From NCBI RefSeq assembly GCF_003334765.1, contig NZ_QOWT01000117.1: a stretch of DNA of 514 nucleotides; one strand, 5' to 3'. This DNA is from Escherichia coli. Its GTDB lineage: Bacteria > Pseudomonadota > Gammaproteobacteria > Enterobacterales > Enterobacteriaceae. Below, one piece after another: positions 1 to 514 of this stretch (the stretch's first letter is position 1; every line of letters begins with the position of its first letter). The position numbers and the translations under genes are program-made. The notes below the pieces were generated by a model. It had not been told where the DNA came from. It saw only the letters and a program-made list of their open reading frames with translations, and made no database searches.

Positions 1-233
1 ACCGTCAGAGCTAATAATTTGTCGACTGCATCGCCATCCGCAAGGTAACTGTAGAAGTGTCTTAAGAGAGTGCATTGCGTTGCCCATAACTTAAAACAGC
101 TTAGATCCTTGTTCGCCAGAAAGTTTCATCCATTTTCTTCCACCCAGGTTGCGGAAGAACCACTTTTCATCCGTCGTTGACAGATGTGAAGTATGCGGGA
201 GAAAAAGTGAATATCTAACTGTAATAACTCAGA

Positions 234-251: not shown

Positions 252-276
252 ACGTCTACAATCATTCAGGGCAAAG

Positions 277-285
277 TGCTAAAAT
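277..285 (+). promoter_or_regulatory. Candidate extended -10 element (TGcTAAAAT) on + strand
   Basis: TG at 277-278, one base, then taaaat (280-285), which matches TATAAT at 5 of 6. The only -35-like hexamer is tctaca (255-260, 4 of 6) at a poor 19-bp spacing. If active, transcription would start near 292-294 and read into the pyrimidine-rich tract. This assumes a bacterial sigma70 context that is not established. Confidence 0.2.
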
Positions 286-291
286 TTCTCT

Positions 292-301
292 ATCCCGGGA
301 T
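292..301. other. 10-bp perfect palindrome atcccgggat (possible dimeric protein-binding site or hairpin)
   Basis: The sequence equals its own reverse complement and is centred on a CCCGGG core. A related half-site tcccgg recurs at 321-326. A single 10-bp palindrome is near chance expectation (about 0.5 per 514 bp), so confidence is low. Confidence 0.25.
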
Positions 302-392
302 GCCCCTACCAACGCAGCACTCCCGGAGATATCATTACAGCTCTGCAACTGATTTCCGCGACTGAACCGCTCAGTTCCTATCCTTCCAGTTG

Positions 393-411
393 CCCTCCTG
401 CCCCCCCTCCC
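393..411 (-). other. G-quadruplex-type motif on minus strand (gggagggggggcaggaggg), with C-rich i-motif complement on plus strand
   Basis: Plus strand 393-411 is ccctcctgccccccctccc. Its reverse complement gives four G3 tracts with loops of 1, 1 and 5 nt, matching the G3+N1-7 x4 pattern. A further C4 at 421-424 could serve as an alternative tract. The motif is seen directly; folding in vivo is not demonstrated. Confidence 0.6.
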
Positions 412-422
412 TGCTGTATACC

Positions 423-440
423 CCGGTACCACAACTCGGG
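423..440 (+). repeat. Copy 2 of an 18-bp imperfect direct repeat, CCGGTAC-N4-ACTCGGG (ccggtaccacaactcggg)
   Basis: Matches 234-251 at 15 of 18 positions, 189 bp downstream. The flanking cccg (422-425) and cggg (437-440) are self-complementary, giving a 4-bp GC stem. Confidence 0.45.
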
Positions 441-504
441 CAGCACTTTTCCCCCTCATAATCTTCGTCACACATCACACAAAACCACTTTCTCACCTTC
501 ACCG

Positions 505-510
505 TATAAT
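505..510 (+). promoter_or_regulatory. Consensus TATAAT hexamer at the right window edge, no recognisable -35
   Basis: Exact tataat at 505-510. Upstream at 17+/-1 bp is aaaacca (no TTGACA similarity), and there is no TG at -15/-14. Any transcript or gene it served would lie beyond the window. Confidence 0.15.
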
Positions 511-514
511 CCGG

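Follow-up and report, generated by a model that had tools for sequence, protein, structure and literature searches.

A stretch of Escherichia coli DNA of 514 nucleotides (the window, i.e., the whole stretch analyzed here) raises the question of whether a G-rich motif with the textbook form of a G-quadruplex (G4) is an element with a role of its own. The motif is the 19-mer GGGAGGGGGGGCAGGAGGG, located on the minus strand of positions 393-411. Our answer, to which a probability of about 0.7 is given, is that it represents an incidental, allele-specific G4 motif in the coding DNA of an unconserved protein tail, and that the main real property of the site is a slippage-prone G7 run with tolerated frameshift alleles. 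The features are listed below.

1-183, minus strand: end of an ISL3-family IS, context only (annotation; terminal inverted repeat at 141-183, 5′ end of a transposase pseudogene at 1-87)
262-370, minus strand: intergenic DNA, which is coding (49-aa extended tail) in G6 (-1 frame) alleles (ORF 262-471, frame analysis, 172-aa isoforms)
371-514, minus strand: 3′ part of the 408-nt gene of the zinc-ribbon domain-containing protein WP_001221619.1 (RefSeq; the gene runs to the equivalent of position 778)
371-412, minus strand: unconserved C-terminal tail R123-N135 and the TGA stop at 371-373 (translation; the paralogue alignment ends at residue 122)
393-411, minus strand: canonical G4 motif, encoding part of R123 to G129 (regex, G4Hunter 2.58, translation, three-tetrad G4 in the model MFE)
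401-407, minus strand: G7 homopolymer (C7 on the plus strand), which forms G125-G126 and the last base of E124; G6, G7, or G8 between strains
404-502, minus strand: Zn_ribbon_11 domain, residues 93-125, CxxC...CxxC (Pfam PF11682, E = 9.6e-18)
421-424, minus strand: extra GGGG tract in the codons of T119/G120, the fourth tract of the 9-nt-loop motif of the majority allele

Sequence, predicted folding and frequency of the motif

The 19-mer is parsed as GGG-A-GGG-G-GGG-CAGGA-GGG, where four G3 tracts are separated by loops of 1, 1, and 5 nt once the G7 run is split as GGG-G-GGG. A spare GGGG, the complement of 421-424, lies 9 nt upstream of it on the G-rich strand. In a regex scan of both strands of the window this was the sole match to the canonical G3+N1-7 pattern, in agreement with the original prediction of a canonical G4 with these loops and this spare tract. 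The absolute G4Hunter score is 2.58 for the 19-mer core and 2.04 for the best 25-nt window, in both cases above the ~1.5 of the class. The plus strand of 393-411, CCCTCCTGCCCCCCCTCCC, is the complement of the G4 motif and carries four C-tracts of at least three bases, which is the sequence pattern of the i-motif that had also been proposed. A degenerate tandem of CCCTCC(C)TG, suggested for the same strand, was not recovered; Tandem Repeats Finder, with a minimum score of 30, was silent at 393-424, where two imperfect copies are discerned by eye.

When the whole window was shuffled 20,000 times with its dinucleotides preserved, a canonical motif appeared in 2.9% of the cases. In shuffles of the same kind restricted to the C-skewed stretch of 371-514 (144 nt), the proportion was 11.8%. 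The motif is uncommon by chance, yet unstriking for the local base composition.

The folding of the sense transcript was predicted with the G4-aware model of ViennaRNA. In the window allele a three-tetrad G4 is part of the MFE (-47.8 vs. -39.3 kcal/mol, a gain of ~8.5 kcal/mol). The majority allele of the locus, which is described below, is marginal in this model, with a G4 in ~42% of the ensemble, and for the G6 allele no G4 was predicted. No rival Watson-Crick hairpin was found on either DNA strand (ssDNA hairpin MFE of -0.6 and 0 kcal/mol). Quadruplex folding of the single-stranded window allele is thus plausible according to the model, and a single strand or the mRNA may well form it. The two-tetrad G4 calls of ViennaRNA for the G8 and 042-type alleles were set aside; the formula of the program gives -18 kcal/mol for any two-layer G4 with 1-nt loops.

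A 150-kb sample of the source chromosome contained four canonical motifs (this one included), six motifs with loops of up to 12 nt, and four runs of at least seven G or C, which extrapolates to ~100 or more per genome for each class. None of the other three canonical motifs of the sample has loops as short as 1, 1, and 5 nt. In the 4.64-Mb K-12 genome, 131 G3+L1-12 motifs have been counted (Marsico et al. 2019, PMC6486626). The canonical G4 class is therefore sparse, not exceptional, in E. coli, and with ~100 motifs per genome one occurrence is unremarkable. Accordingly, the rarity of the motif in its source genome, on which its interest had been made to depend, holds per kb and fails at the level of the genome.

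A zinc-ribbon gene on an IS-ridden island

At 100% identity, the window is found in E. coli chromosomes, for instance in NZ_AP021935.1 at 2987387-2987900, and 3,658 of the 5,426 complete E. coli genomes have at least a partial match to it. None of 50,697 phage records matched, so a phage origin was rejected. The locus lies a few kb beyond cobU, in an island full of ISs and pseudogenes, at the position of CP4-44 in K-12. The zinc-ribbon gene, together with its upstream paralogue, is absent from the CP4-44 of K-12 at both the DNA and the protein level, and thus no K-12 gene name applies to it.

In the neighborhood of this island (L024 1-12626 and 36459-38661), the yersiniabactin high-pathogenicity island (irp1, ybtUTE, and fyuA) lies upstream, and IbrA/IbrB-like genes and a ClbP fragment are found among many IS remnants, all of which make the neighborhood highly mosaic. 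Three regions of NZ_AP021935.1 were sampled, at 0.50 Mb (L022), 1.50 Mb (L023), and 2.94 Mb (L024). Compared with the gene order of K-12, the segment from def to argR at 0.5 Mb runs opposite to the K-12 map, and kdp-suc (1.5 Mb) and yeeN-cobU (2.96 Mb) are K-12-oriented. This suggests that NZ_AP021935.1 carries a large inversion or has an unusual assembly start.

The IS end at positions 1-183 belongs to an ISL3-family element of ~1.77 kb (L001 4418-6183), with 43-nt imperfect terminal inverted repeats (L001 4418-4460 and 6141-6183) that are 77% complementary; its transposase gene is a pseudogene interrupted by an internal stop. A 10-nt tandem, TTTCATCCAT x 1.9 with an 88% match, is located within the IS at window 124-142, just before the terminal repeat. 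The IS end (window 1-184) matches ~1,380 plasmid records, mostly of Klebsiella (970), at 80-90% identity. The plasmid matches to the window end at 182-184; they were mostly matches to the ISL3 end and not to the motif.

In the zinc-ribbon gene, the G-rich strand serves as sense strand. What had been regarded as an independent structural element is protein-coding; it specifies residues 123-129 of a protein that is both annotated and conserved. In detail, the codons AGG GAG GGG GGG CAG GAG GGC encode R123-E-G-G-Q-E-G129, with six further codons before the stop. The protein of 135 aa consists of DUF7828 (residues 4-89) and Zn_ribbon_11 (residues 93-125), both assigned with Pfam. The gene overlaps its upstream paralogue by 13 nt (L001 6766-6778; 31% identity, E = 5e-16), which suggests translational coupling, and a gene of the "inovirus Gp2 family" precedes the pair.

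Between clades, codons 1-122 have a pN/pS of 0.03-0.13, a sign of strong purifying selection. It follows that the protein is real and under constraint and that an unconstrained tail begins with the G-rich segment. The alignment with the paralogue stops at residue 122. Six diverged homologues were compared, namely the copy of E. coli 042, two copies from Klebsiella plasmids, a K. aerogenes copy, another Klebsiella plasmid copy, and a homologue from Moellerella. Their conservation ends at CxxC-xTG-[VIL]YS, the tails beyond are unrelated, and all six lack a G4 motif and have G-runs of at most 5. The canonical motif is absent from the paralogues as well.

The G-richness of the tail does not follow from its peptide. 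When the tail was recoded synonymously with host codon usage, a canonical motif arose in 0.2% and a run of at least seven G in 0.5% of the recodings; the relative use of AGG is 1%, that of GGG 14%, and that of GAG 28%. The G-richness is therefore a property of the DNA level. We read it as the mark of an unconstrained, foreign-derived tail; neutral drift explains it by assertion only, and the rival explanations weighed below are kept alive.

Other candidate roles of the site were also considered. No promoter-like or terminator-like sites were found within the window, and a role of the motif in either was rejected. The search of Rfam at E<=1 gave only a snoRNA match at chance level (15 bits against a gathering score of 42), so a structured RNA was rejected too. 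The Shine-Dalgarno (SD)-like AGGAGG was discarded as a ribosome-binding site, since the next downstream feature is the IS end and no suitably placed start codon exists.

The overlapping zinc-ribbon pair is also found on Klebsiella IncFIB/IncHI1B plasmids (L018 1094-1917), together with Gp2-family genes, an AlpA regulator, and a DUF2913 gene. The set thus resembles a conserved module of a mobile element. Beside the Gp2-family gene, a hypothetical protein of 66 aa (L001 8196-8396) has a weak rubrerythrin-like (CxxC) match with E = 0.005, below the curated cut-off, and is a putative third small zinc-binding protein of the module. A zinc-ribbon homologue of 38% identity adjoins the BREX gene brxL on a Klebsiella conjugative plasmid (L020 359-784 and 1049-1112).

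The zinc-ribbon proteins had no match in NCBIfam or PADLOC, and PHROGs matched only the Gp2-like neighbor, as a family of unknown function. A PDB sequence search with the zinc-ribbon protein gave no significant match, and a literature search on DUF3279, PF11682, DUF7828, and Zn_ribbon_11 found no papers. UniRef and other collections label the 134-172-aa proteins as "DNA-directed RNA polymerase, beta subunit/140 kD subunit," which is almost certainly a propagated misannotation. Their three clusters at 90% identity hold 356, 1,707, and 910 distinct sequences, unusually many variants for so small a protein.

Allele specificity of the motif and length changes of the G7 run

Allele-specific queries of 69-73 nt were counted by exact match in the 5,426 complete E. 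coli genomes, ~2,840 of which bear the locus:

window allele (G7, no CTG, GAG-GGC): 694 genomes, canonical motif with loops of at most 7 nt
G7-CTG-GAA (majority allele): 1,582 genomes, motif only via a 9-nt loop to the upstream GGGG
G6-CTG-GAA: 237 genomes, no motif even with loops of up to 12 nt
G8-CTG-GAA: 27 genomes, motif only via a 9-nt loop

The canonical motif is limited to the window allele, that is, to ~24% of the locus-bearing genomes. An alignment of the 3′ ends of diverse strains shows an inner run of G6, G7, or G8, an extra CTG behind this run in most of them, and GGAAGG in most where the window has GGAGGG. The 042-type copy, GGGCGTGGGGGCGGCAGGAGGTG, is equal in length to the CTG-bearing alleles, and the window allele is therefore taken as a derived in-frame deletion of 3 nt. 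Most simply, it would have arisen by this loss, with the last loop shortened from 8 to 5 nt and with the polarity presumed from the 042-type copy. General G-richness (GGGG...GGG...G5-8...GGAGG) is common to all E. coli alleles, including the 042-type copy. On the contrary, the exact pattern of G-tracts is not kept across alleles, homologues, and paralogues, as would be expected of a functional G4. Since the canonical spacing of the tracts would come from the loss of CTG in one allele, the motif appears to be an allele-specific by-product and not a conserved element.

These data bear on the proposal of a functional G4, that is, a DNA quadruplex on the nontemplate strand, or an RNA quadruplex near the stop codon, that modulates transcription, the termination of translation, mRNA stability, or recombination at the island. 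In its favor, the canonical motif has short loops and scores above 2 with G4Hunter, it enters the predicted MFE without competition from hairpins, its G-rich strand is the sense strand and so the motif is present in the mRNA, and its rare-codon G-richness is not forced by the peptide. By rG4-seq, 168 sites were found in E. coli, all of them in CDSs and most densely near the starts and the ends of these, and an rG4 in the CDS of hemL affects expression (Shao et al. 2020, PMC6974567). However, none of these sites is a canonical G3L1-7, and ~92% are of two quartets (PMC6974567). Likewise, G4-seq in K+ observed only 5 G3+L1-7 and 4 G3+L8-12 quadruplexes in E. coli, against the 131 G3+L1-12 motifs of the genome (PMC6486626). 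In addition, the motif lies inside the CDS (codons 123-129 of 135), outside any promoter, UTR, or known recombination site and with no promoter or terminator nearby; only ~24% of the locus-bearing genomes have the canonical form, the majority allele has the marginal one with a 9-nt loop and the G6 allele none, and the paralogues and homologues are without it. A functional G4 is thus very unlikely, and the predicted quadruplex probably has no selected role.

The most notable property of the site, and one overlooked in the original prediction, is the unstable length of the G7 run, which between strains is time and again one base longer or shorter, with a shift of the frame of the tail. Two clades were distinguished, with the paralogue (clade A) or IS110 (clade B) upstream, which differ at ~13-18% of synonymous sites. 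In each of them G6, G7, and G8 are found on identical or near-identical haplotypes; the length changes have therefore occurred repeatedly.

The three frames keep residues 1-124 and end in tails of 11, 13-14, or ~50 aa. The G7 tail reads ...REGG(L)QEGNWKDRN before its stop and the G8 tail ...REGGAAGRQLEG before its own, and the G6 tail extends by 49 aa into the intergenic region. Seven exact tail isoforms were all present in the public protein collection, on 92 to at least 1000 contigs each. In clade A, the G6 and G7 isoforms are each on at least 1000 contigs and the G8 isoform is on 445; in clade B, the respective values are 92, at least 1000, and 384. The isoform of the window allele is on at least 1000 contigs, and the 172-aa (G6) isoforms are on 92 and at least 1000. 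In several strains PGAP annotates the tail variants either as intact with different stops or as "frameshifted," an inconsistency of the RefSeq annotations which is explained by the G7 run being a recurrent frameshift site.

A second G-run of the same gene (G5, window 453-457, minus strand GAG GGG GAA) was also noted. Strain APEC37 (L002) has lost one G from this run and one from the G7 run, and many alleles have GAA GGA GAA at the 453-457 site, a synonymous form that removes the G5 run.

Homopolymers are error-prone on several sequencing platforms, and the frequency of canonical motifs in the shuffled C-rich region (11.8%) allows for pure chance, so it could be argued that the length differences are sequencing or assembly errors and that the motif is accidental. 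The G7 run of the essential gene tsaC served to control for assembly errors as well as for slippage in a constrained position. It had become G6 in 2 of 5,424 genomes and G8 in none of 5,420, against 237 and 27 for the run studied here within the same set of 5,426 genomes. As the control is nearly invariant, the variation of the tract is real and far above the baseline. Moreover, the exact isoforms come from contigs of independent sources. The explanation by error and chance is already largely refuted by the isoform contigs and the tsaC control, and is hardly credible.

A different explanation of the same variation is that the G-run is a contingency tract, maintained so that reversible slippage swaps three C-terminal tails and diversifies the function of a mobile-element protein within populations. 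Several characters of contingency loci are present. The run has seven bases and lies in a CDS (401-407), its length differs between close strains with independent origins in two clades, and its variation is at least 25-200 times that of the control run. All isoforms are common in public assemblies, the core is under purifying selection and so the protein matters, and a run of at least seven G is improbable from the peptide alone (0.5%). Seven-base tracts can be phase-variable in other bacteria, such as the 7C tract of glpK in Mycobacterium tuberculosis. However, the tract follows both Pfam domains, at codons 124-126 of 135, so that no frame inactivates the protein and only the tails differ; an on/off switch is not formed. 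Coding homopolymer switches favor 5′ ends and act through gene inactivation (PMC2831843). Furthermore, the tails are unconserved across the family, the run is absent from the 042-type copy and the diverged homologues, and relaxed constraint alone accounts for the persistence of the variants. A maintained contingency tract is, on balance, unlikely. It is distinctly unlikely that the poly-G is a selected tail-switching device in which slippage is perhaps boosted by a quadruplex of the G-rich strand. If it were, E. coli would have a phase variation of 3′-end "isoforms," not of the usual on/off type, in a module of Gp2-like, AlpA, and two overlapping zinc-ribbon genes.

A single allele could also give two tail isoforms by programmed recoding, either through a -1 ribosomal frameshift on G GGG GGG or through slippage of RNA polymerase on the G7. 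The heptamer fits X XXY YYZ in the zero frame (GA-G GGG GGG) and is thus slippery, it is flanked by SD-like GGGAGG and AGGAGG, and the -1 frame is open with a short alternative tail that runs to a TAG. Against this, no stimulatory hairpin is found at 5-9 nt, the nearest stem (AACTGA...TCAGT) being ~26 nt downstream, and no Rfam frameshift element matched. The heptamer is absent from the homologues, and the common G6 and G8 alleles are out of the slippery register. Programmed recoding is extremely unlikely.

The preferred reading, an incidental motif beside a slippage-prone run, can be set out as follows. The 19-mer is ordinary coding DNA close to the end of a gene for DUF7828 and Zn_ribbon_11, on a decaying island beyond cobU, at the passage from the conserved zinc ribbon to a short, unconstrained tail. 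This tail is written in rare G-rich codons (AGG, GAG, GGG, and GGG), and the loss of CTG on a GAG-GGC background would have brought four G-tracts within canonical loop distance. The G7 run changes repeatedly to G6 or G8, and what it most likely does is mutational, in that it would act as a hotspot of slipped-strand mispairing. With the folded domain complete before the run, and with stops in two of the three frames within ~11-14 codons of it, the frameshifts would be tolerated and persist as three tails. Slippage is the probable mechanism, and the tail variants are probably neutral.

This carries a caution for the interpretation of bacterial G4 motifs, since even a textbook-perfect one can be an accident of codon choice, confined to one allele, in an unconstrained tail, a matter that a comparison of alleles settles quickly. 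At the same time, the locus offers a recurrent 3′-end G7 frameshift site in a conserved mobile-element gene, in thousands of E. coli genomes, and is a natural system for the rates of homopolymer slippage, and for any contribution of a G4 to them, under weak selection.

Comparison with known systems

With its four tracts of at least three G, its loops of 1, 1, and 5 nt, and its high G4Hunter score, the motif resembles the class of E. coli sequences surveyed by G4-seq (Marsico et al. 2019, PMC6486626). It differs in that its membership is by sequence pattern alone and that the pattern is unconserved among alleles. The published G4-seq covers K-12, which does not have the zinc-ribbon gene.

Similarly, a sense-strand G-rich tract near the end of a CDS is shared with the rG4s of E. 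coli coding sequences, such as that of hemL (Shao et al. 2020, PMC6974567). On the contrary, the quadruplex predicted here would have three quartets, in a gene absent from K-12, whereas the reported ones are mostly two-quartet and never G3L1-7.

The pilE G4 of Neisseria gonorrhoeae was reportedly found by Cahoon and Seifert in 2009 to be required for pilin antigenic variation. It is likewise a bacterial three-tetrad G4 motif of similar length, and of the type behind the earlier mention of recombination or antigenic-variation signals. However, the Neisseria element is intergenic, invariant, and located beside its recombination target, whereas the motif of this locus is coding and allele-specific, with no variable surface-protein cassette adjacent to it.

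The -1 site of E. coli dnaX combines A AAA AAG with two signals, an SD-like element upstream and a hairpin downstream. The G7 run shares with sites of this type an in-frame X XXY YYZ (G GGG GGG) and flanking SD-like sequences, but it has no well-spaced downstream structure and no conservation, and its register is lost in common alleles.

The poly-G/C tracts of Neisseria, Campylobacter, and Helicobacter are contingency loci, whereas phase variation based on simple sequence repeats (SSRs) is not something for which E. coli is known. The G7 run is similar to such loci in being a seven-base run of a CDS that changes by one base up or down on one haplotype, with at least two independent origins and a shift of the frame. 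It differs in its location at the extreme 3′ end, where a short tail is exchanged and the gene stays on; the 5′ poly-A of Listeria monocytogenes inlA, for instance, is a homopolymeric frameshift switch (Orsi et al. 2010, PMC2831843). Conclusively, the feature combines a putative quadruplex sequence with a homopolymer frameshift hotspot, both of them of known kinds and as such unremarkable.
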